A DNA stretch of 64,000 bases from a bacterium (GTDB lineage: Bacteria > Bacteroidota > Bacteroidia > Bacteroidales > WCHB1-69). Of this stretch, positions 7,796-34,450 are shown in pieces. The position numbers and the translations under genes are program-made. Numbering within the stretch: the first letter of the stretch is position 1; the number at the start of each line of letters is the position of its first letter. The notes below the pieces were generated by a model. It saw only the letters and a list, made by a program, of their open reading frames with translations, made no database searches and was not told the origin of the DNA. Location of the stretch: positions 9,213 through 73,212 of the forward strand of contig CAVIJD010000003.1 of NCBI GenBank assembly GCA_963643165.1, given 5' to 3'.

Positions 7796-7822
7796 CCCGC
7801 TAATATACCAAATATAGTTACT

Positions 7823-14500: not shown

Positions 14501-15315
14501 CCGTCAAGGTCGAGGTGCCAAAAGTTGTGTTGCCTGTGTTTCCGGGCACCAATTGCGACTACGATACCGCCAAGGCTTTTGAAGACGCCGGTGCGGAAAC
14601 GCAAATTCTCGTGTTCCGCAACCTCAACGAAAAAGAAATCAACGATTCTCTGCACGAACTGGCAGAGGCAATCCGCAATTCGCAGATTTTGGCACTCAGC
14701 GGCGGCTTCAGTTTGGGCGACGAGCCCGACGGCAGCGGCAAATTCATCGCTACCGTGCTGAACAACGCCCTCGTCAAGTCGGCCATCCAAGACCTTCTTG
14801 CCCGCAAAGGCTTGATAATCGGTATTTGCAACGGTTTTCAGGCATTGGTCAAGTCTGGACTGCTCCCGTTCGGCAAGTTGGGCGATGTCACAACGGCGTC
14901 ACCTACGCTCTACCGCAACAACATCAACCGGCACATCTCGCGACTGGTGCGCACACGCATATCCTCCGTTTCGTCGCCGTGGCTCACCTCTTTTGCTGTG
15001 GGCGACATGCACCGTATCGCCGTCAGTCACGGCGAGGGCAAGTTCGTGGTGACCGAGGCTATGGCCCGCCAACTTTTTGAGAACGGACAGGTTGCTTTCC
15101 AATATTGCGACGAGAACGGCAAGCCCAGCATGGCTCCATCTGACAATCCCAATGGCTCATTCTATGCCATTGAGGGTATTGTCTCACCCGATGGTCTGGT
15201 GCTCGGAAAGATGGGTCACAGCGAAAGAAAAGGCTCAGACTTGTACAAGAACATCGACGGCAACAAGACCCAAGATATCTTCCGCAACGCGGTGGAGTAT
15301 TTCAAGAGAGGATAG
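11596..15315 (+). CDS. purL: Phosphoribosylformylglycinamidine synthase (single-chain large PurL)
   Basis: 1239 aa. It has N-terminal PurS-like, central AIR-synthase-like (ETHNHPTEIEPFGGAATCVGGAIRD) and C-terminal glutaminase (GICNGFQAL...HGEG) regions. Confidence 0.95.
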   Translation: MRNARIFVEKKEGFNVEAVSLKETLNRNFNLNIRNLRLLNIYDIFNVSDELLERAKVGVLSEPVTDNVTESLSLDGQTCFAVEYLPGQFDQRADSAMQCFSLLDPTTDVLVKSARAYVFDADLTDAQLAQIKKYCINEVEAREKDLSVLAVTENPTANDIPVIVGFNSWTSEQLESFRVRLGLAMSLEDLMFIQQYFKNEERREPFETEIKLLDTYWSDHCRHTTFETELAKIVFTPSHLQYQLQEAYETYLALRKAVYGEHTDRPQTLMDMASINGKYERKAGNLNDMEISEENNACSIQIQVDVDGTPEPWLLMFKNETHNHPTEIEPFGGAATCVGGAIRDPLSGRSYVYQALRVTGAGNINAPVSETLEGKLPQSVISKTAAAGYSSYGNQIGLATTHVREVYHDNYKAKRLEIGAVVGAAPVSHVRRERPVPGDVVIMFGGRTGRDGIGGATGSSKEHNEKSLDTCAAEVQKGNAPEERKIQHLFRRPEVTRLVKKSNDFGAGGVSVAIGELADGLFIDLDSVRTKYKGLNGTEIAISESQERMSVVVDKNDVETFFEYCRQENIEANIIARVTDDNRLTMTWKGNTIVSLSRDFINTNGVRQKTEAAVAAVPDNVLEASPVQGDTLSEKMYSCLSNPNVASQKGLIEMFDATIGASTVLMPFGGKRQLTETQVSAQKLPVLHGHTDTTSIMAFGYNPYIAMRSPFHAAVFAILESMSKIVAVGGDFRKIRFTFQEYFEKMGHEPSRWGKPCAAMLGSVWMLKQFDLASLGGKDSMSGTFKDLNVPPTFVSFAITTEKSGTIISPEFKQKGNHIYLIHNKIENCLPDARRTAEIFEFMRQNILNGRIVSAFTLQHGGIAEALAKMSFGNDLGFEINTDRNLFDYGYGSFVVETASELDADFAISLGRVSDRFSINGEIIDKEKCLDVWRGVYNGLYPDEVSNETISTGEEFANGGQKRFSEHAPVKVEVPKVVLPVFPGTNCDYDTAKAFEDAGAETQILVFRNLNEKEINDSLHELAEAIRNSQILALSGGFSLGDEPDGSGKFIATVLNNALVKSAIQDLLARKGLIIGICNGFQALVKSGLLPFGKLGDVTTASPTLYRNNINRHISRLVRTRISSVSSPWLTSFAVGDMHRIAVSHGEGKFVVTEAMARQLFENGQVAFQYCDENGKPSMAPSDNPNGSFYAIEGIVSPDGLVLGKMGHSERKGSDLYKNIDGNKTQDIFRNAVEYFKRG

Positions 15316-15318
15316 GCT

Positions 15319-15915
15319 ATGAAAAGAGTTCAACTTGTCGTGGCGGACATACGTTCTGTGCCTCGTTCGGAGGCTTTTTCGCTTATCCTGAAAGACCGGC
15401 ACAGCGAGCGCTATGTTCCAGTCATCATAGGCATAAGTGAAGCTCGCGCCATTCTCATCGAATTGAATCAGACCAAGACGCACCGCCCGCTGACGCATGA
15501 ACTGTTTATGACGTTGGCCGACAATTTCCGTTGCTCCCTGCTTGAAGTCAACATCATCTATTATGAAGAGGGGGTCTATTTTGCAGACCTGGTCATAAGA
15601 CGGGATGACGGCTCGCTCTTTCACTTGGATGCCCGTCCGTCTGACGCCATAGCCTTGGCATTGAAGGCAAATGTTCCCTTTTTCATGAATGAGGACATCT
15701 TCAATGATAATTGTATGTGCGACCAAATGTGCGGCGAAGACGCTGACCCCGACCTCGACGATACTCTTGAGCCTGTGAGATTACAAGATTTGAGCATTCA
15801 GGAACTCGAAGATTTGCTAGATGATGCTGTCGAACTCGAAGACTATGAACTGGCTGCCCAAATACAGGCAGAACTGGACCAAAGAGAGAATTCTGGCCAA
15901 TCGTCTGGCGACTAA
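15319..15915 (+). CDS. Bifunctional nuclease (BFN/DUF151) family protein with C-terminal UVR motif
   Basis: 198 aa. VPVIIGISEARAILIELNQTKTHRPLTHELF...ARPSDAIALALKANVPFF is the BFN core, and ELEDYELAAQIQAELDQRE is a UvrB/C-type helix. The gene starts 3 nt after purL. Confidence 0.7.
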   Translation: MKRVQLVVADIRSVPRSEAFSLILKDRHSERYVPVIIGISEARAILIELNQTKTHRPLTHELFMTLADNFRCSLLEVNIIYYEEGVYFADLVIRRDDGSLFHLDARPSDAIALALKANVPFFMNEDIFNDNCMCDQMCGEDADPDLDDTLEPVRLQDLSIQELEDLLDDAVELEDYELAAQIQAELDQRENSGQSSGD

Positions 15916-15940
15916 TCAAAAGGAGCAATCCCAATGAGGT

Positions 15941-15969
15941 TTCCAAGTGATTGGAAAATTGTTTTTTTT
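15941..15969 (+). terminator. Short terminator hairpin after the nuclease gene
   Basis: TTCCAA(15941-46) GTGA TTGGAA(15951-56), followed by AATTGTTTTTTTT. Confidence 0.45.
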
Positions 15970-16006
15970 ACGACGCAATCAGCAAAAATACGACCGAAAG
16001 AGTAGG

Positions 16007-16613
16007 CTATTCCCAAATGTTCAGGTTCACATCCATTGACTCGGCGTGAATCTTATCCTCCAGCCAATCAAATTGCTCCTTGCTGACATGGCATTTGAAA
16101 TGTTTGTCCTCCAACAACACAATTTCATCACAACCCTGCTTCAAAGTGGAGAAAATATGAGAGGATATCAAAACCGTTTTATGCTTGCCTTTCAGTAATT
16201 CTATCAAGTCGAACAAAATCATACTGCTTTGAAAATCAATGCCGTTGAAAGGCTCATCTAAGATGTAGCAATCAATATCTTGCAGCAATACGGCAAAAAG
16301 AGTTATGACGAGCAGGTTTTCCACCCATCGGATCAAAAAGTAATTCGGCTTGGAAAAGAGATTCTGCATAAAATCGCAACGGTTTCTGTTGCACAGAGGA
16401 AGGAGAAACAAGAGTCCTCCGCAAAAATAGGATGGCGCAAAGTATCTCAGGTTTCCCCCCAAAAAAGGCAGGCAGCAGAACGGCAGAAAGCACCAGCAAA
16501 AAACCAAGCGCAGGGTGCAGGCCGAAACGTCTGATGCGGCGGCACAACAGGATGAAGTCCCATTTTATATTAGAAAGCAATGGGTTGGGCGTATCAGTAT
16601 TAAAAGAGTTCAT
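16007..16613 (-). pseudogene. Frameshifted, N-terminally degenerate ABC-transporter ATPase remnant
   Basis: ORF 16007..16507 encodes Walker B and the distal part (CYILDEPFNGID...VLISSHIF). The signature-like MGGKPARHNSF is in the other frame (ORF 16272..16613). The two frames join at a T5 run (aactctttttgcc, about 16283-16295). Removing one T gives ...PMGGKPARHNSFAVLLQDIDCYILDEP, with canonical signature-to-Walker-B spacing. I found no Walker A in any frame. A spot count of 16121-16180 gives 21/60 G+C. Confidence 0.55.
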
Positions 16614-16645
16614 AATGTTTAGTTTATCTCTTGTAAGCCAGCAGA

Positions 16646-19213
16646 CTATGCCTGCCGCTTGCGTTTGCGCAGATGGTAGGCTGTCACCCCGATGAGGGTG
16701 AGGCAGAAAACGCCTAAGCAGGAGAGGGCGATGGTGTTGCCGCGGTGGATGCTGTCAGGGTCGAAGACCATAGCGAGCGTGTGCGTGCCGGCGGGGATGA
16801 CGGCCGCACGGAGCATATAGTTGGCGCGGGCAATGGGCAACTGCTCGCCGAGCTTGCCGTTCTCGTCGGTGAGGTAGAGCTTCCAACCGAAAGGATAGAA
16901 AATCTCGGAGAATATGGCGATGCGGTCGCGGCTGTTGCGGGCGGTATAGTCGATGCGGTTAGGAGCGTAATGATTTACCGATATGGTGTCGCCGGCCGCA
17001 GGCTCCGTGGCTGCCAAGCCGCCTTTGAGTTGTTCTGCAAAGGTCTTGTCCGCCACGGCCGTGGTGTGCAGGTTGACGCTGTCAAGGGCTGCAATCTCGT
17101 CGTTGGCGTTGTCGGTGACATACAGGTCGTTCACAAACCAGCAATTGCCCATAGCGTAGGGGTTCTGCACCGGCACCTGCTGTCCGTTTTGCAGCGGCAC
17201 AATGGCATACTTCATGTTCAGCATGTTGAGCACCGGGAAGATGCTGTCGCCGTTGCAGGGGGTCTGGAAACCGCCCGTGAGTGCGATGGCCTGCATCAGC
17301 GGGTTCATCTCTTGGGAGATGTGTACATCAATGAGGTCTTGGTAACGGCGCAGTTTGGCCGCCGAATAGCCGCCGATGGACTTGAGGTAGTAACTGGTGC
17401 GCGCCTCGTTGAAGGTGCTGGTCGAGAGGTTGAGCACCCGGAAATAGGTCGGGTCTTTGAGCAACTCCTCTTCGTAAGGCATTTTCTTGAATGTCTTGTT
17501 TCTGTCCTTTTTGGCGATGAAGTTGCTGTCGTTCAAGAACCTTTTGTCAACGGGCCACATGTCGGCCACGATGAAGACGGTCAGCAACAGCCCGAAGCAG
17601 AGGTTGAGGTTCTTGCTAGGCTTGAAATAGGAGCGGTAGGCAAATCCGAAAACCAAGAGCGCGCCAATCACTACGAAAGCGAACGAGCGCCAAGCGTCAG
17701 CCTTGATCATGGCCGTGCGTTGTCCGAGGATGGCGTCATAGATTTGTGGTCCAACCTGGTCTTTCCATTGTGCATCGTAAGTGGAGGCCACGTTGATGCT
17801 GCCGCTGAACAGTGCCGTGAAGAGGCATACGGCAGCGGTTACGCCGCCGGCAATGAAGATGCTGTTGCGGATACGCTGCCACGAGAGGGTGCCGTCGGTG
17901 ATGCGCTTGATGGCAAGGAAGCCGATCAGCGGCATGGTGATTTCGGCCACAATGAGGATGCTCTCAACGGCGCGGAATTTGCTGTACATGGGAAAATAGT
18001 TGAAGAACAGCTCCGTGAAAGGCATGAAATGATGTCCCCAGGCGAGAAGTACGGAGAAGAGCGTGGCGGCAAGGAGTGCCCATTTGTAGGGGCCGTCAAC
18101 GATGAGCAATCCTAACAGGAACAGGAAGCAGACAATGGCTCCCATATAGACGGGGCCGCTGGTGAAGGCTTTCTCGCCCCGGTAGGTGGGCGCACTTTGG
18201 CAGAACTGCCGGGCCTGCCGCGACGGCACGCCCATCTTTTTGAGCTCTTTTTCAAGTTGTGAGCCATCGCCGAGATTGTAGCCGCTGGCACCGCCCATAT
18301 AGTTGGGGATGAGAAAAGTCATGGTCTCATCGATGCCGTAACTCCAGGCGGTGGCATAGTCGAGGTCGAGACCTTTGGTCTTGTTGGTCTCGTCGGTTGT
18401 CTTCACAAGGTCGGAGTGCCCGCCGCGCATAGTTTCGGAAGCGTACTCCTGGTTTGCGAACATGTTGGCACAACCCATGCCGATGCCGATGGCCAAGGAG
18501 CCGGCAAATACGGCGGTGCCGATGCCGAAGTGCTTCCACGCTTTGTCACGCCACGCAATGGCCAGTTCGGCGAACCACAACACGCCGATGAGCATACACA
18601 TATAATAGCCCATCTGCGGGTGCAAGTACAACCCGAAAAGGGTGAAAAACATCACGAGAATGGCACCCCACCCATATTGCTTCCGGAAGATGAGAATGAA
18701 CCCCACTATCACTAATGTCATCCAGGTGATGGACATGGTTTTGGTGATATGGCTGGCTGAAATGATGATGAAGAAGTAACTCGACATGGCGATGGCAAAG
18801 GCACCGGCCAGAGAAATCCATTTGTCTATCTTGAAGGTGCGCAGCAACAGGAAAAAGGCAATGAGGTAGTACAGGAATATGAAGCAGACATTGTGACTGG
18901 CCCAAAGCAATACGGTGCGGAATGGCTTCAGGCATTTATCGACAGCATAGCTGCCATGACCGCCGATTTGATAGTTGGGCATTCCTGAAAACATGGCGCC
19001 GTTCCAATAAGAGTAGTCTCCCGTCTGATTGTGAAATTCGACAGACTCATGCGGTGCGGCCGAGGCGGTGATGCTGTCGCCGGCATTGATGACCTTGCCC
19101 TCGAATGCGGGGTAGAAGTAGATGACGTTCGCCAGCATGAAGAGGCAGAGGATGATGATGTCAGGAACGATTTTCTTGAAGGAGGTTTTTGTGCGTTGCA
19201 TTTCGGATTTCAA
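16646..19213 (-). CDS. YfhO-like polytopic membrane protein (GT-C-like)
   Basis: 855 aa with more than 12 predicted TM segments and a C-terminal TM anchor. The N-terminal YPAFEGKVINAGD...YWNGAMFSGMPNYQIGG resembles the YfhO family. Confidence 0.6.
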   Translation of the reverse strand: MKSEMQRTKTSFKKIVPDIIILCLFMLANVIYFYPAFEGKVINAGDSITASAAPHESVEFHNQTGDYSYWNGAMFSGMPNYQIGGHGSYAVDKCLKPFRTVLLWASHNVCFIFLYYLIAFFLLLRTFKIDKWISLAGAFAIAMSSYFFIIISASHITKTMSITWMTLVIVGFILIFRKQYGWGAILVMFFTLFGLYLHPQMGYYMCMLIGVLWFAELAIAWRDKAWKHFGIGTAVFAGSLAIGIGMGCANMFANQEYASETMRGGHSDLVKTTDETNKTKGLDLDYATAWSYGIDETMTFLIPNYMGGASGYNLGDGSQLEKELKKMGVPSRQARQFCQSAPTYRGEKAFTSGPVYMGAIVCFLFLLGLLIVDGPYKWALLAATLFSVLLAWGHHFMPFTELFFNYFPMYSKFRAVESILIVAEITMPLIGFLAIKRITDGTLSWQRIRNSIFIAGGVTAAVCLFTALFSGSINVASTYDAQWKDQVGPQIYDAILGQRTAMIKADAWRSFAFVVIGALLVFGFAYRSYFKPSKNLNLCFGLLLTVFIVADMWPVDKRFLNDSNFIAKKDRNKTFKKMPYEEELLKDPTYFRVLNLSTSTFNEARTSYYLKSIGGYSAAKLRRYQDLIDVHISQEMNPLMQAIALTGGFQTPCNGDSIFPVLNMLNMKYAIVPLQNGQQVPVQNPYAMGNCWFVNDLYVTDNANDEIAALDSVNLHTTAVADKTFAEQLKGGLAATEPAAGDTISVNHYAPNRIDYTARNSRDRIAIFSEIFYPFGWKLYLTDENGKLGEQLPIARANYMLRAAVIPAGTHTLAMVFDPDSIHRGNTIALSCLGVFCLTLIGVTAYHLRKRKRQA

Positions 19214-23123: not shown

Positions 23124-24767
23124 ATGAAAACTTTAAAGATGCTTATGTGCTGTTTGATGCTTGCGGGCATCTCTTGTTATGCACAAGATTCCGGACGTGT
23201 GGGAAAATCGTCCTTTGATAAGGTACTTCATTCTTTTTCTGTCCAATACAACAACTGCCTCCAGTTCCCGGCACGCTTTGATTACCATTGTAATTCCTCT
23301 CTCGGGTGGAGTCCCAGCCTGTCATACGGAAACGAATACTCGATTGGTTATGAACTGATTTCCAAGTCCGGTTTTGGATTTGGTTTAGATGTCACAAAAG
23401 GGTTGGTCGGGCTGAACGCCAAAACCCAAGGCCAATGGTCAATCAGATACGCTTCAAATTATGCTTTGGACTATGTGAATTTGCTGGAAGTTGACTATTG
23501 GGCAGTGAAAGCGAAAGCAACATATTCAAGAGTCTTGACGGACAGGGTTATGTTGAATGCTGCAGTTGGCTTGAATTTCCCGTTTTATACCCCGATGTTT
23601 GTCACATATATAAGCGCTCCGTACAACAACCTTGACGGAAACACCGACGAGAGTCTGTTCTTGAACAATGACGATTGTGTTCGCAACTGGGCCCCGGATC
23701 TTTTGTTGGGGGTGAATTTTCTGTTTCATACCAAAAGGAATCCCCGGAACAATTTTATTGTAGGCTGTAATTTCAATGCCGGTTTTTTGCCCCGTTATTC
23801 AGGCTATTTTGCCCTATCAGAATCTGTTGACCGGCATGATTGCGACATCAAGTACGGGTCATCTTACGTTGGTGTCAACTTCGGCTACTCATTTGTCGGA
23901 TTCGACAAGACTTTTGACCGCAAAAAACATCGCCAAGAATCTGAATACCGCACTTTCGATTTCAACAGTGCCGTTCATGCGGTCTCTTTAGAGATGAACA
24001 ACGGACTGGCAGTAGGTGGAAACGCACGTTGGGAAGGTCCAATCACTCCTGTGGTGCACACAACATATTCTCCTTCTTTGTCTTTGAAATACAGTTGTAT
24101 GATACGCAAAGGTTTTGGCTTGTCTGTGTCGGTTCCCTTAGGATTGTTCAGACGTCAGGGAACAATTTCCCTGCAAGGCGTTGTGCCGTCAGACACGGTC
24201 TGGACAAATGGAACTGTCGGAGGCAATGATTCGGAAAATGGCCTGAGCCTTTCTTCTCCTTACTGCGGATTGTCTTTGCAGGCAAGTTATGCCCGTCAGA
24301 TACACCGCAATGTCTTTATGCAGTGCGACCTCGGCTTTTCTGTACAACAGTTGCTCTACAACCATGAATTCGGATCGACGTCGTATGACGAAAACGGTAT
24401 GGTTGTCCTGAGTGATGAAGGCTTCTCATACATCGGGAATCCGTATGAACTTACTGCCGATGAGATGATTCCTTTTGCCCGCGAACACGTACAATACAGT
24501 CCAGATGTCGTCTGTTATCTCCCGAATATATGCGGCGGCATCAGTTTTATGGTTCACGGAAAGAATCCTTGCCACAATTTTGTCTTCGGGCTCAATTTCA
24601 ATGTGGATTACACCACGCGTATTTCATATAACTATACGACGCTGCCCAATTTCCCCCAAAAATACTACTCGTTTGGACTGATTAACTTTAACATGACAAC
24701 AGTAGGTCTGCATGTGGGCTATAAGTTTATGACAGGGAAGCAGGTGAAGTGGCAGGATAAAAGATAG
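23124..24767 (+). CDS. Hypothetical outer-membrane-type protein with an internal tandem duplication
   Basis: 547 aa with signal peptide MKTLKMLMCCLMLAGISCYAQ. The two halves align by eye: FDKVLHSFSVQYNN/FNSAVHAVSLEMNN; WSPSLSYGNEYSIGY..GFGFGLDV/YSPSLSLKYSCMIRKGFGLSVSV; PDLLLGVNFLFHTKRNPRNNFIVGCNFNAGF/PNICGGISFMVHGKNPCHNFVFGLNFNVDY; YVGVNFGYSFVG/TVGLHVGYKFMTG. Alternating aromatic/aliphatic strands suggest a beta-barrel. Confidence 0.65.
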   Translation: MKTLKMLMCCLMLAGISCYAQDSGRVGKSSFDKVLHSFSVQYNNCLQFPARFDYHCNSSLGWSPSLSYGNEYSIGYELISKSGFGFGLDVTKGLVGLNAKTQGQWSIRYASNYALDYVNLLEVDYWAVKAKATYSRVLTDRVMLNAAVGLNFPFYTPMFVTYISAPYNNLDGNTDESLFLNNDDCVRNWAPDLLLGVNFLFHTKRNPRNNFIVGCNFNAGFLPRYSGYFALSESVDRHDCDIKYGSSYVGVNFGYSFVGFDKTFDRKKHRQESEYRTFDFNSAVHAVSLEMNNGLAVGGNARWEGPITPVVHTTYSPSLSLKYSCMIRKGFGLSVSVPLGLFRRQGTISLQGVVPSDTVWTNGTVGGNDSENGLSLSSPYCGLSLQASYARQIHRNVFMQCDLGFSVQQLLYNHEFGSTSYDENGMVVLSDEGFSYIGNPYELTADEMIPFAREHVQYSPDVVCYLPNICGGISFMVHGKNPCHNFVFGLNFNVDYTTRISYNYTTLPNFPQKYYSFGLINFNMTTVGLHVGYKFMTGKQVKWQDKR

Positions 24768-24906: not shown

Positions 24907-24943
24907 AAGAGGGGACATCTTTTGGAGGATGTCTCCCTCTTTT
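24907..24943. terminator. Bidirectional terminator hairpin between convergent genes
   Basis: AAGAGGGGACATC(24907-19) pairs with GATGTCTCCCTCTT(24928-41), with T-runs on both strands. Confidence 0.65.
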
Positions 24944-24968: not shown

Positions 24969-26462
24969 TTATTGTTTCATGATTTTAATGTTTTGTCCGT
25001 TGACGCTGAGCAGATAGAAGCCATTTTCGAGGCTGCTCAGGTCGATGGTGGTGTTGCCGTTCATCTGCTCGGTGCGAACCAGCTTGCCCGAGATGTCATA
25101 GAGGTACGCCACAGTCACTGTTTCGCCGCAGACGATGGTACAGCGGTCGGACACGGGGTTGGGATAGACGGCGATGTGGGCTTTTTCGGCAGGGTTCTCT
25201 CTGACGGCGGCAGGCATCCAGCCGTTGAGCACGGCCACACCCGACAAGTCAAAGCCGCTGCTGGCGAATGGGGTGGGGTAAGGGTCGTTGATGATTTGCC
25301 CGTACTGGTCGCGGGTGCCGTATTGCGGGTCAATGGAGCCTACGACATCCACAAGTCGCACGTGTGTGATGTTGTTGATGTCGATGCCAGTGCTGTCGGC
25401 AAGCTGCGCCAAGTCAAAGGGCGTTCCCCAGCCGATGCGGTACTTGCCGGCGAGGTTGTTGATTTTGGTGGCGTCAACGCTGCCGCCATTGCCGATTTGT
25501 GTGCTGTCTTGTGTGTTTGAGGTGGCGGGAAAGCGAACATAACGCTCACCGTCAGAACTTACTTCCACGAAGGCCAACTCCAAGAAGGTATCGTTCAGTG
25601 CGTTCTCGAATACGGCAAAGTCGTAGCCGTCGCCGTCCTGAATGGGCAGGCTGAAGGTGAGCACGGCCGTGCCGCCGTCGCCAAGGCTAACCACACCGCT
25701 GGTGGTGACGCTCGAGGCTGCCCCAATGCCGTCTTCTTCAGTGCCGTAGGTGGCTAAAACGGAAGGGATGGCGATGTCTTGATAGCCGCGCGTGATTTGG
25801 CATCCCGTGGCCCAGCCTAAGATGGTGGGGTCTTCGCAATGGATGGCCTGACACCCCGGCGTGCCTACAATGCCGTCAAACAGCGTGTCAGGAGAGATGG
25901 GCGTTGGCGGTGTAGGGGGCGTAGGGGGCGTGACGGTGTCCGGGACCTGATTTGGGTCGCTTACATAGTAGAGGGTGGCATTGTCAAAGGTGCAGTCGCC
26001 CCATTCCTGCAGACTGAAGTCTGCACCGGTCTGCAATTGGTCGCCAAGTCCGCTGTACCAATGGTCTCCGCTTGAGTAGGTCAACATTCCGCCAGTGATG
26101 GCGAGGTTGTAGGCGGAGTCTTGATAGGTTACGCTTTCTACCCAACTGGTGACGCTTACGTTGATACGGCTGTCGGCAGCATTCAGTTCGTTGAAAAACT
26201 CCTGTACGGTCTTCGAGCCGTTCCAGGCATAGCCGTAAACTACCCCGACGGGATTGTCATTGTTGCAAAAGTAGAAACCTGCGGCAATGCGGTTGCTGCC
26301 TTGCCCGACCCAATATTGGATTTGTGCAGTGTCAACTACGGTCGTGACGGCTTTGACACCAGGCCTGAATTTGGCCCCGCCGTTCTGGTACGGGTACGGC
26401 GTCTGGGCAGAAAGGATACTTGCAAGAAACAGGATTGCAAGAAATAAGATGTTCTTTTTCAT
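24969..26462 (-). CDS. T9SS-sorted (type A CTD) secreted protein of unknown function, two domains joined by a Pro/Thr linker
   Basis: 497 aa with signal peptide MKKNILFLAILFLASILSAQ. The linker is PDTVTPPTPPTPPTPISPD. The C-terminal VYPNPVSDRCTIV...LYDISGKLV...LENGFYLLSVNGQNIKIMKQ is a T9SS CTD. The gene is last in the riboswitch-controlled unit. Confidence 0.7.
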   Translation of the reverse strand: MKKNILFLAILFLASILSAQTPYPYQNGGAKFRPGVKAVTTVVDTAQIQYWVGQGSNRIAAGFYFCNNDNPVGVVYGYAWNGSKTVQEFFNELNAADSRINVSVTSWVESVTYQDSAYNLAITGGMLTYSSGDHWYSGLGDQLQTGADFSLQEWGDCTFDNATLYYVSDPNQVPDTVTPPTPPTPPTPISPDTLFDGIVGTPGCQAIHCEDPTILGWATGCQITRGYQDIAIPSVLATYGTEEDGIGAASSVTTSGVVSLGDGGTAVLTFSLPIQDGDGYDFAVFENALNDTFLELAFVEVSSDGERYVRFPATSNTQDSTQIGNGGSVDATKINNLAGKYRIGWGTPFDLAQLADSTGIDINNITHVRLVDVVGSIDPQYGTRDQYGQIINDPYPTPFASSGFDLSGVAVLNGWMPAAVRENPAEKAHIAVYPNPVSDRCTIVCGETVTVAYLYDISGKLVRTEQMNGNTTIDLSSLENGFYLLSVNGQNIKIMKQ

Positions 26463-26508
26463 AGCGTTTTTTGATTTTTGTTTGTTATAATGAATGTTAG
26501 ATGTCTGA

Positions 26509-27576
26509 TTAGTATTTCACCAATATTGTTCCCGGATTCAGCCCGACGGCAAACGAAAATTTCTTTTTCCCGTTCTTGTCAAAGCAGTAAACGTCCCCGT
26601 TGACGGTGAAGTCGTAGGCATCGGAGATGTAAACGTCCCCGTTGAGTTGATTGACGGCGATGCCGTAGGGGCGTTTGAGCGTTGTGCCGTCGGTGACGAA
26701 ATTCTCAGTGACGATGCCGTCGCTCTCCAAGTCCATCACCTTGATCCAGTTGTTGTAGTTGTTGTAGTCGCTGTAGTAAAGATAGGCGTATTTGCCGGCG
26801 ATGGCAAAGTTGAGCACCTCCCAGTTGTATGTTCTGATGACCTCGTCGGTTGCAGCATCGATTTTCTGAAAGTTGTATGACTCGGAGCCGTAATTCCCGC
26901 GGGAGGCCACATAGACGTATTTGTCGTCGTAACTTTGTATGATGTAAGGGTTTGTGGCGACTTCTATGGTGCGCAGCAGGGTAAAGGTGGACAGGTCGAA
27001 TACGGAGACCGTTTTGCCGTAGTTGGGAGCATTGAGGCCGCCGGAGTTGGCAACGTACAGTTTGCCGTTGCAGACGCAGACGCCCTCGGGGTTGCTGCCC
27101 GAGTGCGCCGTGGCATCTACGGTCAGGGTGGCGGTGTCGATGCGCACGATGTCGCCGTCAAAGCAGCTGACGTATGCTTTGTCGCGGTAAAAGGTCAGCC
27201 GCCGCGGCTGCTTGCCGTTCAGTTGGATGGCCTTGATGGACTTGGCATCCGACGGGTTCATCACATCCACACGGTTTGAGTTGTTGATGACGCAGTACAA
27301 CTTGCCGCCGTATAGTTGCAGGTCGTTGCCGGTGTCGCCAAGGCCGCGTCCGTTGCTCTCAAGAAAGATGTCATTCGTCAAGTTGTTGGCGGTGAAGTCA
27401 TAGTAGGTCAGCGTGCTGTTGTTATGCTGGTAGAGCCCCTCATTGAGCACATAGACCCCCTCCGCCTGGTAATCGACTGGCGGGGTGTTAGGGGTTTGAG
27501 GCTCGGGCGGGTTGCAGGATGCCGCAAGCCAGATGCCCAAAAGGAGAAATACGGTTCGCTTTAATGTCAGTTTCAT
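26509..27576 (-). CDS. YncE/DUF5074-like beta-propeller surface lipoprotein (BtuG-like candidate)
   Basis: ORF 26509..27600. The likely start is the ATG at 27576 (MKLTLKRTVFLLLGIWLAASC lipobox). Blade-like repeats recur: VYVLNEG, LYCVINNSNRVDVM, AYVSCFDGDIVRID, LYVANSGG, VYVASRGNYG, DVYISDAYD. The gene is directly downstream of a cobalamin riboswitch. Confidence 0.7.
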   Translation of the reverse strand: MKLTLKRTVFLLLGIWLAASCNPPEPQTPNTPPVDYQAEGVYVLNEGLYQHNNSTLTYYDFTANNLTNDIFLESNGRGLGDTGNDLQLYGGKLYCVINNSNRVDVMNPSDAKSIKAIQLNGKQPRRLTFYRDKAYVSCFDGDIVRIDTATLTVDATAHSGSNPEGVCVCNGKLYVANSGGLNAPNYGKTVSVFDLSTFTLLRTIEVATNPYIIQSYDDKYVYVASRGNYGSESYNFQKIDAATDEVIRTYNWEVLNFAIAGKYAYLYYSDYNNYNNWIKVMDLESDGIVTENFVTDGTTLKRPYGIAVNQLNGDVYISDAYDFTVNGDVYCFDKNGKKKFSFAVGLNPGTILVKY

Positions 27577-27689
27577 TTCCTTCGCATTTTTTATCCACAA
27601 ATATGCTTCGGGGAAAGTGGAAACTGCTCTGGACGGAATGTCCTGAAGTTTTTCTCGCCACGACCAGCCTACCTCCCGAAGCGGTCAAC

Positions 27690-27845
27690 AACTGTCTGCA
27701 GGCAGGTTTTCTGACTTGTTTCTTCCGCAATGTCTTCCCATCATGCGACAGTGACAAAGGTACTGCGGAAACGTATGAAACTTACAGCAGCGGGTACTGT
27801 ACAGGATTTGCACCTGTTTCCCTTTCAGAAATTCGCTTATGCGAA
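27690..27845 (-). promoter_or_regulatory. Cobalamin (B12) riboswitch aptamer
   Basis: The rc of 27781-27830 is TTCTGAAAGGGAAACAGGTGCAAATCCTGTACAGTACCCGCTGCTGTAAG (conserved GGGAA / GGUGnAAAUCC / CCCGCnnCUGU core). The rc of 27701-27717 is AAGTCAGAAAACCTGCC (B12 box). CACTGTCGCATGATGGGAAGAC lies between them. Confidence 0.8.
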
Positions 27846-27866
27846 CTCTTCACCTGAAAACGGCGA

Positions 27867-27874
27867 CAAAAATA
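27867..27874 (-). promoter_or_regulatory. -7 promoter box (rc TATTTTTG) driving the riboswitch leader
   Basis: + strand caaaaata; the reverse complement matches TAnnTTTG. It lies between the TBDR stop (27893-27895) and the aptamer. Confidence 0.5.
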
Positions 27875-27892
27875 GAAAAAAAAGTGTCCGGT

Positions 27893-30379
27893 TCAGAACT
27901 CTACAGAAAATTTAACATTGACAAGCCGTCCGGTCAGGTAGTTGGGCACGGGATATCTGTTGTTGTCGATGTCAGAGAACCACGAATAGGAGGAGATGTT
28001 GTTGATGCCGAGGAGGTTGAAAACCTCGATATAGACACCGGCGTTTTTGATGCTGCGGACGAATTTCGACTTGTTGCGCATACGGTCGCGGCTCTGTTCC
28101 AGAATCATGAACGAAAAGCCGAGGTCTATGCGGCGGTACCAGGTGTGGTCGCGCAGCCGCTGGTAGGTGACGCCGTCGTCGGGACCGTAAGGCAAGCCGG
28201 TGGCAAAAACGAAATTAAGGTGCGCCCTGAACTGCGGGTATCCGGGGATGTGGTCTTGAAAGAAGAGGTTGAAGGCAAATCGTTGGTCGGTGGGGCGCGG
28301 AATGTAGCCCGTCTGCGCGGTTTCCCCGTCAACGTCGGTGTAGGTGATGTTCTCTTCCGTCTTCAGCAGTGAGACGGAGAGCCACGACTCGAGGCCGCGT
28401 ATGAACTCGCCGCTGACTTTGAGGTCCAGTCCGGTGGCGTACCCCACGGCGTCGTTTTCGCCACTGTAGGTGATGCGCACGTTGTCAACGTTGTAGGAGA
28501 TGAGCCGGTCAAGGTATTTGTAATAGGCTTCGGCGGTGAATTTGAATGGCCGCCGCCACAGGCTGAAGTTATATTCGCTGCCCAGCACAACTTGGAAAGA
28601 GCGCTGCGAGCGGATGTCCGGGTTGAGTGTTCCGTCACGGTGACGCATTTCGCGATAGAATGCCGGCTGGTAATAGAGGCCGGTGCGCAGCGAAAACAGC
28701 CAGTCGTGCCGCCATTGCGGGTTGTAGATGAAGGAGAGACGGGGCGAGACGGTGAACTCTTTTTTGTTGTAGGTCCAATAGTGAAAGCGCACGCCGCCGT
28801 TCAGCATGTAGTGCGGCATGCTGTCGCCGTCGATGTTCCACTGGTCTTGTATGAAGCCGGAGAAGCGGAATGTGCTCAAGCGGTTGGCGGACTGCAGGAA
28901 GCTGTTGTCTCCAAAGATGAGCCGGCGCGACGGGTCGTCCAACGGCACGTCTATGCCTATGGTCTCCTGTATGAAAGGCAGGGTATAGCCGGCGGAGTCG
29001 TTCATAGTCCACTCGCGGATGCGGTCGTCGATGTACTCGTGCTGCGCCTTTACTCCCCAGCTGATCGTGTTGGATGCCGGCAAGGTGTGCTCGCCGCGCA
29101 GGTCGGCGGCGGATACTATGGAGGTGATGTAGTTGCGGGCATGCTCCAGATAGCTGCCGATACCCCGGGTGTAGGTTTCATTGACGGTGCCCTCGGCAAT
29201 GTCAAGCTCAATGTCGCTGAAACGGTATTGCCCTAAGATGTCGTAGGTTTCGCTCTCTTGGGCATAGTAGGACGAGAAGGTCAGTTTCAGGCGGTTCCGA
29301 CGGTTCGGCGTGTAGGCGAACGTGAGCCCGCCGAGGTAGTTTTCGTAACGGTCCACCTCCTGCCCCTCAAAATAGACGGTGAACTGCTTGAAGTCGGAGA
29401 TGGAGCCGAAGCGCGTCTGCTTGTTGGACGGCTGGTAGATGTAGCTGTTGCGGGTGAAGATGCCCAGCAGGCTGATGCTGAACTTGTCGGTGATGTCCCA
29501 CTTGAGGAGCATCTGCGTGTCGAAGAAGCGCGGTTTGTAGTCGCCCGTGTCGCCGCTTACGCGCATGGATTTCAGGAGGTAGGCGTTCGACTTGAAGCGA
29601 GCGCCGACGAGGAACGAGAAGCAGCTGTCAACACGCCCCTCGGCGTGGACGGACGCGCCGAGCAGACTGGCGGAGACGGAGCCGCCGTACTGCGTGGGCT
29701 CTTTGTACTGCACGTCAAGCACCGACGACATCTTGTCGCCGTACTTGGCCTCGAAGCCGCCGGCAGAGAAGACAACGTTGCCCGTAAGGTCGGGATTTAC
29801 AAAACTCATGCCCTCTTGCTGGGCGTTGCGCACCAGAAAAGGCCGGTATATCTGGATGTCGTTGACGAAGACAAGGTTTTCGTCATAGTTGCCGCCGCGC
29901 ACATTGTACTGCGAACTCAATTCGTTGGACGAGGAGGTGCCGGGCAGCATCTTGATGAGCGACTCCATGCCGCCCGTGGCAGACGGCATCTGAAACGACA
30001 ACCGGGGATTTACCCGCACATAGCCGTTCTCACTGCGGCTCTGTATGTTCACTTGCTCCAAACGGTTGCCCACAGTGGCAAGCACAACCATAAGCACGGC
30101 GGTCTCCTTGGACTTGAGACGCATGTTGAGCAGGGTGTCTTTGTGGCTGATCTGCTGAAAATAGAGACGTAAGTCGGTTTCGGCAGGCACACTTAACGAG
30201 AACTGCCCGTAGTCGTTGGTGATGGTCTGGAGACTGTGGTCCAACACGCGGATGACGACGTTTTCAATAGGTTGGCCATATTCGTCAACAACAGACCCCT
30301 TTACGATGGCCTTCTGCCCGTAAGTTGTACCGGCAAACAGCATCGTTGCGAAGAGCAGAAACAATATTCTATGTCTCAA
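27893..30379 (-). CDS. TonB-dependent receptor with N-terminal carboxypeptidase-regulatory-like domain
   Basis: ORF 27893..30430. KAIVKGSVVDEYGQPIENVVIRVLD is a CarboxypepD_reg-like domain, followed by plug (VRGGNYDENLVFVNDIQIYRP) and barrel regions ending ...LVNVKFSVEF. There is no ATG upstream of the signal peptide. Candidate starts are TTG at 30379 (giving (M)RHRILFLLFATMLFAGTTYGQ) or TTG at 30430. Confidence 0.85.
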   Translation of the reverse strand: MRHRILFLLFATMLFAGTTYGQKAIVKGSVVDEYGQPIENVVIRVLDHSLQTITNDYGQFSLSVPAETDLRLYFQQISHKDTLLNMRLKSKETAVLMVVLATVGNRLEQVNIQSRSENGYVRVNPRLSFQMPSATGGMESLIKMLPGTSSSNELSSQYNVRGGNYDENLVFVNDIQIYRPFLVRNAQQEGMSFVNPDLTGNVVFSAGGFEAKYGDKMSSVLDVQYKEPTQYGGSVSASLLGASVHAEGRVDSCFSFLVGARFKSNAYLLKSMRVSGDTGDYKPRFFDTQMLLKWDITDKFSISLLGIFTRNSYIYQPSNKQTRFGSISDFKQFTVYFEGQEVDRYENYLGGLTFAYTPNRRNRLKLTFSSYYAQESETYDILGQYRFSDIELDIAEGTVNETYTRGIGSYLEHARNYITSIVSAADLRGEHTLPASNTISWGVKAQHEYIDDRIREWTMNDSAGYTLPFIQETIGIDVPLDDPSRRLIFGDNSFLQSANRLSTFRFSGFIQDQWNIDGDSMPHYMLNGGVRFHYWTYNKKEFTVSPRLSFIYNPQWRHDWLFSLRTGLYYQPAFYREMRHRDGTLNPDIRSQRSFQVVLGSEYNFSLWRRPFKFTAEAYYKYLDRLISYNVDNVRITYSGENDAVGYATGLDLKVSGEFIRGLESWLSVSLLKTEENITYTDVDGETAQTGYIPRPTDQRFAFNLFFQDHIPGYPQFRAHLNFVFATGLPYGPDDGVTYQRLRDHTWYRRIDLGFSFMILEQSRDRMRNKSKFVRSIKNAGVYIEVFNLLGINNISSYSWFSDIDNNRYPVPNYLTGRLVNVKFSVEF

Positions 30380-30448
30380 TGTCAGGTGTCTGTTTTTTTG
30401 CTGAAAAATATATACGGCCAAATTCCGCAATTATTGCATGACGGGGTG

Positions 30449-30489
30449 CAAAAAAAAACTGCTGCAACAGGAACTCCATTACAGCAGTT
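30449..30489 (-). terminator. Rho-independent terminator after rpmB
   Basis: The minus strand reads AACTGCTG..(loop)..CAGCAGTT (30489-30482 / 30464-30457), followed by T8 (rc of A-run 30451-30458). Confidence 0.7.
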
Positions 30490-30517: not shown

Positions 30518-30751
30518 TTAGAGGTTACCTTTCTCTGCGGCTTCTACCAGACATTGGAAGATGCCTTTCTTGTTGATGTTGCGCATGCCATGTGCAGAAA
30601 CCTTGAGATAAATCCATTCGTCCAACTCGGGAACGTAGAATTTCTTTGTATGCAGATTGGGCTTGAATGTTCTTTTTGTTTTGATATTAGAGTGGGATAC
30701 GTTATTTCCGACCACTGCTTTCTTACCTGTAATTTGACAAACTCGTGACAT
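30518..30751 (-). CDS. rpmB: 50S ribosomal protein L28
   Basis: The true start is [33 protein letters not shown]... at 30751. The upstream part of the 101-aa ORF is a spurious extension. Confidence 0.92.
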
Positions 30752-31039: not shown

Positions 31040-34000
31040 ATGAAAAAATCATTCATTTTGTTTTGGGCACTGCTGCTTTTTGTATTCAGTGCATCTGCCC
31101 AACATTATGCCGTAAAGCAGAACGGTTACAGCAGAGTGGAAATCTCATTCACGCCGGGCAAGATTACGCCCCAGACGGTGAAAGAGGCCGGTGGCGTTTA
31201 TACGAAAATCACGATGGAAGACTATAGCCTGAGCACGCGTGAGGGCTATCCGCAACTCCCGATGATGAGCAAACTGATTGAGATTCCGGTTTGCGACTCT
31301 GTAGTGGCCCAGATCACCCACAGCGCATACGATGAGTACGATGCGGCAGAACTTGGCATTACCGCCCCCATCTATCCCGTTCAGCACGCTTACTCGAAGT
31401 CGTACAAAGGAGAACGCTCTTTCACGAAAAACAACGAGATCTATAGCCTCAACAGTTTTTATTCAGAGCCGATAGTGCGCGTGGAGAAGTCGGGAACAAT
31501 GCGCGACGTAACGATGGCCTGCATCATGGTGTCGCCCGTGGCCTACAATCCCGTGACGAACCGCATCCGTGTCTATCGTGAAATTGACGTGGCCGTGTCG
31601 CCCGTAAATGCAGACCTCCCCGCCACCTACGAACTCAAGAGCAAGTTGGGCAGTCCGCTGTTCAAACTGGCTTCCGAAGCGGTCATCAATCCGATAACCG
31701 ACATCCGTACGGAGTTCACGGCCGCTCCCATCAAATACCTGATTATCGCCAACTCGATGTTTTCGGGCAACGAGAACCTCAACAATTTCGTACAATGGAA
31801 AAAACGCTTGGGATACCTTGTGGAGGTGGCCTATACCAGCGATGCCAACGTGGGCACAACCACAACGTCTATCAAAAACTATATCCTGAGCCATTACAAC
31901 AATGCCACACCCGAAAATCCCGCCCCTACATTTCTGCTGCTCATCGGCGATGTGGCCCAGGTGCCGGCATTCGACAGCCAGGTTTCCGGTAGCGACCATG
32001 TGACAGACCTCTATTATGCTACGTGGACCACCGGCGACAACCTCCCCGACTGCTATTATGGCCGTTTTTCTGCCCGTAACATTTCCGAACTGACCCCCCA
32101 AATCGAAAAGTCGCTGATGTATGAACAATACACGATGCCCGACCCCTCCTATCTGGGCACCGCCATCCTGATTGCCGGCACAGACAGCTATTGGTCGCCC
32201 ACCCACGCACAGGGACAGGTCAACTACATCTACAATAATTATGTCAACACATCGTCTTCAACCCATAATTACACGACAGTTTTGAAGCACGACTACGACT
32301 GCAGCAGCCAGGCCGCCACCATCCGCAGCGAGATCAGTGCCGGTGCCGGCTGGGTCAACTACACCGCCCATGGCGCCGAGGAGGAGTGGTACAGTCCCTC
32401 GTTCACTGTGTCGCAAATTTCCTCCCTGGCCAATGCCGGCAAGTATGGCCTGATGATTGGCAACTGCTGTCTTACGGGCAAGTTTGACGAAGCCAACTGC
32501 TTCGGTGAGGCTTTGATGCGTGCCAGCAACAAAGGCGCGTTGGCTTATATCGGCGGCTCTAACGTCACCTACTGGGACGAGGATGTCTATTGGGCCGTCG
32601 GCGTGCGCAACAACATAAACGCCAACATGACCTACTCCTCGTCGAATCTTGGCGCTTACGACCGTATCTTCCATACCCACAATGAAACGCACGACAAATG
32701 GAGCACCACCATCGGTGGCTATATGGAAGGCGGAAACCTCGCGGTGCAGTCTTCAACCTCGTCTCGGAAAAAATATTACTGGGAGGTCTATCACACATTT
32801 GGCGACCCCTCCATCCGTCCTTATCTGGGCATCCCGAACACGATGAACGTTTCCTGTTCTGACGTGCTGACCGTGGGACAGAACTCTTTGGTGGTGACGG
32901 CCGCACCCGCCTACGCATACGTGGCATTGACGCACAACAACGACTTTGTGGCCGCCGCTTTCGCAGATGCTAACGGCGAGGCTACGCTCTCCTTTGACGC
33001 GCTCAGCGAGCCCGGACAGTATGAGTTGGCCGTCGGCGCACAAAACTATGTCCAGTATTTCAAGACTATCTCGGTCATTGTCCCCGACGGTCCCTATATT
33101 ACCGCTTCAAATGTGCAGTTGAACGGCATCGCTGAGGTGGGCACAACCGTCACCTGGAATCTTTCCGTCAAGAACTTGGGCGTCTCTGCCGCCTCTACCG
33201 TGTATGCCAAGATGACCACTTCCGCACAGGGCGTCACGCTGGTGCAGGACTCTGTCTATATCGGCAATGTGGCCGTTGATGAGACGAAAGCCCTCCAGAA
33301 CGCCTTCAGCGCCGCCATTTCAGGATCCTTGGAAGACGAGACCCCTGTAACATTCAATGTCACCGTGTATTGGGGATCCGGTCACTCTGACAAAGCCATC
33401 TCAGAACGTGCCGCCGCACCCAAACTCGTGGTGGCCGCAAACCGCATCTCTCCCCAGACAATAACCCCCGGCAGCATGGTGACGGTTGAGATTGACAATA
33501 AAAACGAAGGCCATGCCGCACTGCCGTTTGCCATCGTGGACCTCACCTCCAACTATACCGGCGCAAGGGTGATCTCACCCTCCTACTATATGTACGCACT
33601 GCAGCCCGACCAGACAACGACCAACACCTTCACGGTGAAAGTCGCCGACAATGTGCCCGACAACGCTATCATACCGCTTTACTACCATAGGGTGATAGGC
33701 TCGTCGCATACAATCGATACCTTATTTATGCTGGTAGGCACATGTACCGAAGACTTTGAAACCGGCGACTTCTCGACGCGCTTTGAATGGGACAACACTT
33801 CGGCCTATCCGTGGACAGTCACTTCAGCCCAGAAACATAGCGGAAACTATAGCATGCGCTCAAAAGAGGACCTTGCCCACAACAAAACATCCACTCTCGA
33901 ACTGACAGCCACTTCCATCATGGACGGCGAATTCTCCTATTTCCGGAAAGTTTCAACGGAAGCCAATTACGACAAGTTCAAATTCTATGTGGATAACGTG

Positions 34001-34450
34001 CAGAAAGACGAAGCCTCCGGTTCGGTGGGCTGGACACAGATTACAGTGCCTGTGACGGCCGGAACGCATACCTATCGTTTTGATTATACCAAAGACGGCA
34101 GCCAGTCGTCATACAGCGACTGTATCTGGGTTGACGACATTGTCATTCCGGGATTCGGCACGATGGTAGAGGCCGACACGACTGACGGCGTGGGCGTGGA
34201 TGAGTACATCACCACAGAAACGGATGTGCGCCTTTATCCCAACCCTGCCACCACAAGCGTTGCCGTTGAGAGCAACGAGCCAATTCAGGAGATTGCAGTG
34301 GTGGATATGAGCGGTCGACTGGTTTGCACCGCTGCTGCAAATGGCGAGACAAAGTGTATGGTTCCCGTGACTGACCTTGCAGACGGCATCTATTTTATCA
34401 CTATAAAGAGTGCCGGCAAAGAAAGCACCCTTAAATTCATCAAGCAATAA
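31040..34450 (+). CDS. Gingipain-like C25 cysteine peptidase with T9SS C-terminal domain
   Basis: 1136 aa. It has a signal peptide, a propeptide-like N-terminus and a C25 core: LLLIGDVAQVPAF, NYTAHGAEEEW (His444, codon 32369-32371), GNCCLTGKFD (Cys476/477, 32465-32470). These are followed by CARDB/Ig-like repeats, a MAM-like jelly-roll (CTEDFETGDF...CIWVDDIVI) and a CTD (VRLYPNPATTSVAV...GIYFITIKSAGKESTLKFIKQ). Confidence 0.85.
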   Translation: MKKSFILFWALLLFVFSASAQHYAVKQNGYSRVEISFTPGKITPQTVKEAGGVYTKITMEDYSLSTREGYPQLPMMSKLIEIPVCDSVVAQITHSAYDEYDAAELGITAPIYPVQHAYSKSYKGERSFTKNNEIYSLNSFYSEPIVRVEKSGTMRDVTMACIMVSPVAYNPVTNRIRVYREIDVAVSPVNADLPATYELKSKLGSPLFKLASEAVINPITDIRTEFTAAPIKYLIIANSMFSGNENLNNFVQWKKRLGYLVEVAYTSDANVGTTTTSIKNYILSHYNNATPENPAPTFLLLIGDVAQVPAFDSQVSGSDHVTDLYYATWTTGDNLPDCYYGRFSARNISELTPQIEKSLMYEQYTMPDPSYLGTAILIAGTDSYWSPTHAQGQVNYIYNNYVNTSSSTHNYTTVLKHDYDCSSQAATIRSEISAGAGWVNYTAHGAEEEWYSPSFTVSQISSLANAGKYGLMIGNCCLTGKFDEANCFGEALMRASNKGALAYIGGSNVTYWDEDVYWAVGVRNNINANMTYSSSNLGAYDRIFHTHNETHDKWSTTIGGYMEGGNLAVQSSTSSRKKYYWEVYHTFGDPSIRPYLGIPNTMNVSCSDVLTVGQNSLVVTAAPAYAYVALTHNNDFVAAAFADANGEATLSFDALSEPGQYELAVGAQNYVQYFKTISVIVPDGPYITASNVQLNGIAEVGTTVTWNLSVKNLGVSAASTVYAKMTTSAQGVTLVQDSVYIGNVAVDETKALQNAFSAAISGSLEDETPVTFNVTVYWGSGHSDKAISERAAAPKLVVAANRISPQTITPGSMVTVEIDNKNEGHAALPFAIVDLTSNYTGARVISPSYYMYALQPDQTTTNTFTVKVADNVPDNAIIPLYYHRVIGSSHTIDTLFMLVGTCTEDFETGDFSTRFEWDNTSAYPWTVTSAQKHSGNYSMRSKEDLAHNKTSTLELTATSIMDGEFSYFRKVSTEANYDKFKFYVDNVQKDEASGSVGWTQITVPVTAGTHTYRFDYTKDGSQSSYSDCIWVDDIVIPGFGTMVEADTTDGVGVDEYITTETDVRLYPNPATTSVAVESNEPIQEIAVVDMSGRLVCTAAANGETKCMVPVTDLADGIYFITIKSAGKESTLKFIKQ

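Follow-up and report, generated by a model that had tools for sequence, protein, structure and literature searches.

The 64,000-nucleotide stretch analysed here (positions 9,213 to 73,212 of contig CAVIJD010000003.1, assembly GCA_963643165.1, from a Bacteroidales bacterium of the lineage WCHB1-69; the whole stretch is hereafter called the window) carries on its minus strand a two-gene unit in which a cobalamin riboswitch is followed by a btuG-like gene (gene 1), a gene for a 497-aa cargo protein of the type IX secretion system (T9SS) (gene 2) and a terminator. The unit is probably self-contained and repressed by vitamin B12 (B12), and would encode two proteins for corrinoid capture, each brought to the cell surface by its own route. 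Of its parts the riboswitch and BtuG are already known; new are the protein family to which gene 2 belongs and the way B12 loci use the T9SS for their accessory proteins. A preliminary description of the locus, made from the sequence alone, knew of no T9SS cargo under control of a B12 riboswitch, and none tied to cobalamin riboswitches or Btu loci was found in the literature searched, from which most subscription journals were missing. The features it had named, that is the riboswitch, the lipoprotein, the cargo protein, a TonB-type barrel and the terminator, were all recovered where it had placed them.

The riboswitch and the BtuG1-type lipoprotein

When searched with Rfam the minus strand gave a match to the cobalamin riboswitch RF00174 at positions 27684-27872, scoring 93.2 bits (gathering score 31.5; E=7e-22) and covering the model from end to end (1-189 of 189), in agreement with the riboswitch proposed earlier. 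With a family-specific covariance model, R1, built from Rfam-positive related loci, the same aptamer scores 202 bits. A chance origin of the arrangement is excluded because of the Rfam E-value and because the arrangement recurs in other genomes.

Directly 5' of the aptamer (27867-27874, minus strand) lies TATTTTTG, which fits TAnnTTTG, a sequence we take to be the -7 promoter consensus of Bacteroides and other Bacteroidota. Of 71 homologous riboswitch loci, 62 have the element at exactly this offset regardless of the gene located upstream, and since its 'TA' falls outside the covariance model this position is independent of the model fit. The conserved offset therefore indicates that the riboswitch unit has its own promoter, as had also been suggested in the preliminary description.

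The leader, or expression platform (27577-27683, minus strand), spans the 107 nt from the end of the aptamer to the start of the btuG-like gene and holds the motif GCUUCGGGAG, situated directly 3' of the aptamer (27670-27683), followed by an A-rich stretch before the ATG. This motif is able to pair with CCCGAAGC about 60 nt downstream and is kept in the leaders of 13 related loci, distant ones included (leaders of L001-L025), and it may represent the regulatory (kissing-loop) helix of the expression platform. An intrinsic terminator in that role was considered and rejected, as neither a minus-strand terminator nor a U-tract is present in 27577-27683. Repression in response to B12 is established for RF00174 and for the loci of Bacteroides thetaiotaomicron (PMC10404256, PMC13616437), and for that reason the OFF direction is proposed here as well, so that the operon would be repressed by B12.

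The btuG-like gene (26509-27576, minus strand) encodes 355 aa from its ATG and its predicted product is a seven-bladed propeller lipoprotein. Its N-terminus, MKLTLKRTVFLLLGIWLAASC, holds a lipobox, the signal peptide and lipobox (LAASC) being encoded at 27514-27576, and the protein matches Pfam DUF5074 with 58 bits (cut-off 27.2). Comparison with solved structures using phmmer gave E=6e-81 over 315 residues to 8BLW chain B, BtuG1, and about 5e-80 to 8PTD and 8PTF, while the matches to BtuG2 and BtuG3 were much weaker (about 1e-22). Because the similarity to BtuG2 and BtuG3 is far lower, gene 1 is assigned to the BtuG1 type, without the fused BtuH domain. The entry 8BLW is the BtuB1-BtuG1 complex of B. 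thetaiotaomicron, and in the solved complexes BtuG caps BtuB (PMC10404256); 8PTD and 8PTF show the BtuG1 propeller with cyanocobalamin and with cobinamide, respectively (10.1101/2024.02.16.580637). When the seven contact residues of BtuG1 named in the latter study were aligned with gene 1, F60, Q139, R141, E180, R244 and Y290 were found to correspond to Y, Q, R, E, R and Y, and E249 to G, giving six conserved contacts out of seven if the replacement of F60 by Y is included. Judged by its sequence gene 1 is thus a true BtuG of the BtuG1 type, and the BtuG-like propeller of the preliminary description stands.

After the lipobox Cys of gene 1 only one acidic residue follows and a surface export signal is not clear; among related loci a lipobox-like motif was seen in 30 of the 40 BtuG-like open reading frames (ORFs). 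No gene for a BtuB partner is located beside gene 1 within the 64-kb window, while relatives harbour a btuB1-type gene in the same operon.

The 497-aa T9SS cargo protein and its relatives

The gene encoding the 497-aa protein (24969-26462, minus strand), identified from its ORF and from models of the T9SS C-terminal domain (CTD), follows the btuG-like gene after an intergenic gap of 46 nt. Its CTD (residues 432-497, 24972-25169, minus strand) is matched over residues 432-496 by PF18962 with 45.8 bits (cut-off 27) and by TIGR04183 with 40.4 bits (cut-off 23), and the profile of the family matches the solved CTDs 7PZJ and 8GLJ; this type A sorting domain is the only match of the protein in Pfam or NCBIfam. 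The N-terminus, MKKNILFLAILFLASILSAQ, was read by eye as a Sec signal peptide, MKKNILFLAILFLASILSA|Q (26406-26462, minus strand), with a putative cleavage site at the bar, and the structure model places a helix at residues 2-20. The machinery that such a protein needs in trans is encoded in the same window, the shuttle and sortase genes porV and porU occupying 2497-7839 on the minus strand (PorV at 2497-3774, NF033710, 481 bits; the long form of PorU at 3829-7839, NF033707, 1210 bits). With both curated cut-offs exceeded and PorU and PorV present, the type A CTD as well as the porU and porV genes reported in the preliminary description could be verified.

Homologues of the 497-aa protein number in thousands, and their alignment shows a common plan of signal peptide, N-terminal modules, Pro/Thr linker, central domain and CTD. 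The N-terminal modules, of about 140 aa and DUF4430-like, occur in zero to five or more tandem copies. The window protein has one such module (residues 38-176, 25935-26351, minus strand; predicted local distance difference test score, pLDDT, about 85-95), which in BLASTP comparisons matches the three tandem repeats of the relative P0020 with E=5e-30, 9e-12 and 2e-7; homologous repeats in P0020, P0064 and P0045 reach 33-49 bits with Pfam DUF4430 (PF14478), for which the threshold is 23.8. The module is followed by the Pro/Thr-rich linker TVTPPTPPTPPTPISPDTL (residues 177-194, 25881-25934, minus strand; pLDDT below 50) and by the hallmark of the family, a central domain of about 225 aa (residues 195-420, 25203-25880, minus strand) in which about 50 positions are invariant across 81 sequences. 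No Pfam or NCBIfam model matched this domain, and its AlphaFold2 model (pLDDT 90, predicted template modelling score 0.89) has the form of a beta-sandwich, jelly-roll-like.

A fold search with the full-length model gave GH2 glucuronidase matches of low template modelling score (TM), caused by the arrangement of a jelly roll and an immunoglobulin-like CTD, and as this was uninformative the search was repeated on the central domain alone. Among its best 50 fold matches there are no entries for BtuH (7BIZ, 8BLW_B), BtuJ or BtuG. Identity with BtuH, considered on account of the BtuG1-BtuH fusion and the gene order, was rejected, since no match was found in the PDB with the single sequence or the profile and neither 7BIZ nor 8BLW is among those 50 entries. 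Identity with BtuJ (DUF4465) was rejected likewise, with no Pfam match, an hhalign probability of 0.2% and none of 24 family members matching PF14717 (DUF4465) at E<=1. The comparison with BtuH suggested in the preliminary description thus came out negative, and the 497-aa protein belongs to a family separate from both BtuH and BtuJ in sequence and in predicted fold.

When 1.84 billion representatives of 50%-identity clusters were searched with phmmer, the central domain was found in 1,848 of them, 793 at E<=1e-30. To describe the genomic context, 80 genome loci with relatives at 38-88% identity were sampled, originating from rumen and hindgut Bacteroidales metagenome-assembled genomes, Winogradskyella, Ulvibacter, Flavobacterium and Crocinitomix as well as Chitinophagaceae, Lentimicrobiaceae and Prolixibacteraceae. 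Rfam detected RF00174 upstream in all eight loci tried, and with model R1 71 of the 80 proved to have a same-strand riboswitch at a distance of 113-5480 nt upstream. As a control 80 metagenome loci (963 kb) picked for the unrelated barrel gene neighbouring the unit were used; only three contain a riboswitch and all three are copies of the window arrangement. The survey of neighbourhoods suggested earlier, for recurrent RF00174 matches, therefore came out strongly in favour of an association. Nine of the homologue loci lack the riboswitch, five of them with less than 2.2 kb of upstream sequence, and a rescan with Rfam of L007, L039, L047, L049, L064, L068 and L072 revealed none.

The gene order in these loci takes several forms. 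In about 25 of them the riboswitch and the family gene stand alone and in about 20, the clade of the window included, the order is riboswitch, btuG and family gene. BtuG-like operon partners are present in 29 loci and a BtuB1-type transporter in 16 operons (the copy in L004 matches 8BLW_A with E=2e-180), and in Winogradskyella (for instance W. costae and W. undariae; L066, L071) the order is riboswitch-btuB-btuG-btuG-family gene, the second btuG carrying a CTD. The CTD is found on 73 of 74 ORFs with the central domain and also on 14 of 15 that hold N-terminal repeats only; since the latter carry a CTD, each of the two modules can occur in a cargo protein of its own.

The central domain is fused to DUF4465 in 8 of 146 distant representatives, in both orders, and also in L073, and P0365 consists of a BtuG propeller, the central domain and a CTD. 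CTD-bearing DUF4465 proteins are encoded in the same operons as the family in L075, L078 and L080, and a CTD-bearing BtuG propeller in L066 (8924-10210). In P0290 the central-domain protein takes the form of a plain lipoprotein, and outside Bacteroidota P0305, P0325, P0370 and P0381 carry PEP-CTERM-like tails. This suggests that the central domain is a portable module for the cell surface that is combined with more than one kind of anchor.

Some further observations were made in the related loci. In L054 (5151-16249) an anaerobic ribonucleotide reductase (NrdD) and a PKD/fn3 protein with a CTD are encoded behind the same riboswitch, and in the Winogradskyella locus L066 methylmalonyl-CoA mutase genes (14050-17607) are located downstream of the btu genes. 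Tandem riboswitches on the same strand were seen in L045 (1612-1810 and 8301-8499), each before a family member, one of which is 2122 aa long with many N-terminal repeats, and in L030 (1669-1852 and 5248-5430), where the second runs into the contig end.

The neighbouring barrel and the weighing of the readings

Upstream of the riboswitch lies a gene for an 828-aa TonB-type barrel (27893-30379, minus strand), its stop codon 20 nt before the riboswitch and its start a TTG at 30379, which gives the protein the length of its closest homologues. It contains a CarboxypepD_reg domain and a Plug domain of 23.4 bits, under the cut-off of 23.9, and no barrel-family match was obtained. Searches of the PDB with the single sequence and with a seven-sequence profile showed no similarity to BtuB, and phmmer with two BtuB queries found nothing in the window at E<=10. 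The barrel family is strongly conserved (55-76% identity across many Bacteroidales), and among 84 ortholog loci sampled (L081-L164, 41-76% identity) rpmB is located directly upstream, or one gene of about 219 aa further, in about 28. Besides rpmB no gene recurs and the downstream gene varies, being btuG in five of the 84, three of these with a riboswitch, and a FecCD-ABC set in two (L084 and L132, where FecCD and an ABC ATPase follow 11 nt after the barrel). In one ortholog (L081:6001-9581) a 63%-identical btuG lies 11 nt after a 76%-identical barrel, with no riboswitch and no family gene, and is followed by uvrC; either the riboswitch and gene 2 were lost here or this is the ancestral state before their insertion.

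The barrel as a BtuB is rejected for its lack of BtuB similarity together with the context of the 84 orthologs, and probably it lies outside the B12 module. Two points of the preliminary description are not supported on these grounds, the TonB-dependent receptor as a member of the module and the location of the riboswitch after the receptor as a particular design. Since the barrel is without BtuB similarity and its orthologs mostly without B12 context, the placement of the riboswitch is most likely an accident of the insertion site and not a regulatory design.

The working of the unit may be pictured as follows. Transcription would start from the Bacteroidota promoter, which extends over the final bases of the gene before it, and run through the cobalamin riboswitch, the leader permitting expression when intracellular cobamide is low and the liganded aptamer shutting the operon off when it is high. 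The lipoprotein of gene 1 would bind corrinoids and cap a BtuB-type TonB-dependent transporter presumably encoded outside the window. The product of gene 2 would be exported by Sec, its CTD recognised by the T9SS (PorV, PorU), and then be released or attached to the surface, where it would display one DUF4430-like module and one conserved jelly-roll-like domain. Most likely it would bind corrinoids in the medium and pass them to BtuG/BtuB, thereby filling the niche held by the BtuH and BtuJ lipoproteins in Bacteroides without a T9SS. Corrinoid binding by gene 2 is suggested by its context, by the fusions and by the link to DUF4430, and the final location of the protein and the identity of the transporter are likewise conjectural.

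Several results weigh against this picture. The fold of the leader has a z-score of only -0.97, no better than shuffled sequences, so the predicted platform is weakly supported, and the N-terminal module of the window protein itself stays below the DUF4430 threshold of 23.8 bits. For the central domain no relation to BtuH, BtuJ or BtuG could be detected: a profile of 81 sequences matches only CTDs in the PDB at E<=10, hhalign against DUF4465 gives the 0.2% mentioned above, and the fold matches are carbohydrate-binding modules (CBMs) and their like, CBM32, CBM6, CBM35 and F5/8 type C, with E>=2e-3 and TM<=0.53. Neither R1 nor Rfam finds a riboswitch in L049, L064 and L072, all with a full 10-kb upstream flank. 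Within the window there is no BtuB or BtuFCD gene and the uptake route is assumed; BtuC/FecCD and DUF4465 homologues were not detected there either, the former as noted in the preliminary description, which had found no BtuFCD-type importer. Finally, BtuL is a riboswitch-controlled protein of a Btu locus that does not bind B12 (PMC13616437), and because of the precedents of BtuL and BtuK2 the proposed corrinoid binding of gene 2 can fail.

These precedents lead to the alternative that gene 2 is co-regulated with B12 uptake without being a corrinoid binder, its lectin-like jelly roll binding another ligand, for instance glycans of B12-producing neighbours, B12 carriers of the host or the environment, or the own envelope (compare BtuL and vesicle release). 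This is considered unlikely, although it would agree with the CBM-type fold matches, with BtuL and BtuK2 as riboswitch-controlled Btu-locus proteins without B12 binding, and with the missing sequence or fold link of gene 2 to any known B12-binding domain. However, these fold matches are weak, and jelly rolls form a generic scaffold that BtuJ, which does bind B12, has as well; the central domain is repeatedly fused to DUF4465, in both orders, and to BtuG, the companion DUF4430-like repeats point to corrinoids, and the occurrence of the family in gut, soil and marine taxa argues against a ligand specific to host carriers.

Less probable still is that the barrel is the cognate outer-membrane transporter, a non-canonical analogue of BtuB with the BtuG-like lipoprotein as its cap; the riboswitch would then sit inside an operon of receptor, lid and accessory, and B12 would gate the lid and the scavenger alone. 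The order of barrel, gap of 20-80 nt, riboswitch, btuG and T9SS gene does recur in L001, L002, L003, L005, L041, L093 and L107, the btuG of L081 follows its barrel with no riboswitch between, L084 and L132 have FecCD and an ABC ATPase after the barrel, and barrel orthologs lie near B12 loci in L068 and L080. Yet the adjacent cases belong to a single lineage, the adjacency of barrel, riboswitch and btuG being restricted to barrels at least 66% identical to that of the window, and of the 84 orthologs 79 lack btuG and 81 lack the riboswitch, with rpmB as the conserved neighbour. Other genes lie upstream in most operons of btuG and T9SS gene, the riboswitch is preceded by a -7 box of its own where the family generally has it, and the barrel does not resemble BtuB1, BtuB2, BtuB3 or E. 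coli BtuB, a genuine BtuB1-type gene being present in 16 homologous operons. That the operon supplies a B12-independent substitute function, in the manner of metE or nrdD, and not B12 acquisition is very improbable. Such substitutes are indeed controlled by cobalamin riboswitches, and nrdD occurs in the riboswitch-led string of L054, but gene 1 is closely homologous to a structurally proven B12 binder and gene 2 is exported, has no enzyme-like family match and has B12 transport proteins as operon partners.

A B12-repressed unit for corrinoid capture is accordingly the reading that is preferred here. A wider and more tentative proposal, held with slightly less than even confidence, is that the central domain constitutes a new corrinoid-binding fold, that the DUF4430-like repeats correspond in bacteria to the transcobalamin beta-domain and that the T9SS exports a set of B12 scavengers. 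This set would comprise the 497-aa family and CTD-tagged paralogs of BtuJ and BtuG, and its hosts would be rumen and hindgut Bacteroidales, marine and soil Flavobacteriia and Chitinophagia, all T9SS-bearing.

Other features surround the unit. It ends at a terminator (24911-24936) shared with a convergent gene, a hairpin with a T-run readable on either strand, which confirms the bidirectional terminator reported earlier. The convergent ORF (23124-24767, plus strand; 547 aa) has a signal-peptide-like start and no match in Pfam or NCBIfam and may encode an outer-membrane protein. On the other side an intrinsic terminator search located a terminator following rpmB at 30457-30489, and rpmB itself lies at 30518-30751 (minus strand). 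Further T9SS genes are those of a PorP/SprF-family protein (7823-8893, plus strand) and a GldJ-like protein (8969-10456, plus strand), the latter just under the equivalog cut-off. A 1136-aa protein (31040-34450, plus strand), a gingipain-like peptidase and T9SS cargo, combines Propeptide_C25, Peptidase_C25, a C25 immunoglobulin-like domain and a type A CTD; PorU was considered for this ORF and rejected, since the PorU model is not matched and the domains are those of a C25 peptidase with its propeptide and a CTD. A tmRNA gene is located at 62556-62948 (plus strand; RF00023, 145.8 bits).

Meaning and known systems

Current models of B12 capture in Bacteroidota rest almost wholly on B. thetaiotaomicron. 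In Bacteroidota that bear a T9SS, as seen in the window and the 80 loci related to it, the accessory proteins encoded behind cobalamin riboswitches are cargo of this system. For the family of gene 2 there is neither a Pfam model nor a solved relative, nor is it mentioned in the literature searched. If the family binds corrinoids, a new binding fold is added, and the T9SS and B12 uptake, two well-studied but unconnected systems, become linked, with a handle on the competition for cobamides by B12-auxotrophic rumen Bacteroidales and marine Flavobacteriia. Should the T9SS in fact export a set of scavengers, it would be a route of vitamin acquisition, and T9SS mutants would suffer B12 starvation at the concentrations found in the environment.

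Among known proteins gene 1 resembles the BtuG1 propeller of B. thetaiotaomicron (BT1490) in DUF5074, the lipobox, the cobalamin riboswitch upstream and the six contacts out of seven. It differs in lacking a fused BtuH domain and in having neither btuB nor btuFCD beside it, and its locus differs from that of BtuG1 in that the next gene encodes an unrelated T9SS cargo protein and not a lipoprotein. Gene 2 in turn shares with BtuH (BT1956 and the C-terminal domain of BT1490; 7BIZ) the position directly after, or fused to, BtuG, and the fusion P0365 mirrors BT1490, a BtuG-BtuH fusion (PMC13616437). Unlike BtuH it would be exported by the T9SS rather than lipidated, and there is no profile similarity at E<=10.

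With BtuJ/DUF4465 (BT1491, BT1957; 9FCT, 9I2L) gene 2 has in common an extracellular domain of beta-sandwich or jelly-roll type, predicted in the case of gene 2, and the location in riboswitch-controlled B12 loci. When the central domain and DUF4465 are found together, the two are encoded by distinct genes or form distinct domains, and therefore neither is a redundant copy of the other. B12 binding by BtuJ and BtuG is established by experiment, and B. thetaiotaomicron, which is without a T9SS, captures B12 by lipoproteins only, namely BtuG, H, J, K and L (PMC13616437).

In B12 carriers of the transcobalamin, intrinsic factor and haptocorrin type, DUF4430 (PF14478) makes up the C-terminal domain (PMC4350170). 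What links the N-terminal module of gene 2 to DUF4430 is its homology to the repeats of relatives that pass the threshold; it differs in falling below that threshold itself and in having roughly double the length of the Pfam model. No account of bacterial DUF4430 repeats binding B12 turned up in the literature searched. For a nutrient binder anchored by the T9SS there is a precedent in HBP35 of Porphyromonas gingivalis, a haem-binding T9SS cargo. Gene 2 agrees with T9SS type A cargo, such as the C25 peptidase of the same window, in its Sec signal and Por_Secre_tail and in the presence of PorU and PorV in the genome, and it is set apart from other T9SS cargo by its control through a cobalamin riboswitch and by being embedded, together with its relatives, in B12 uptake loci.

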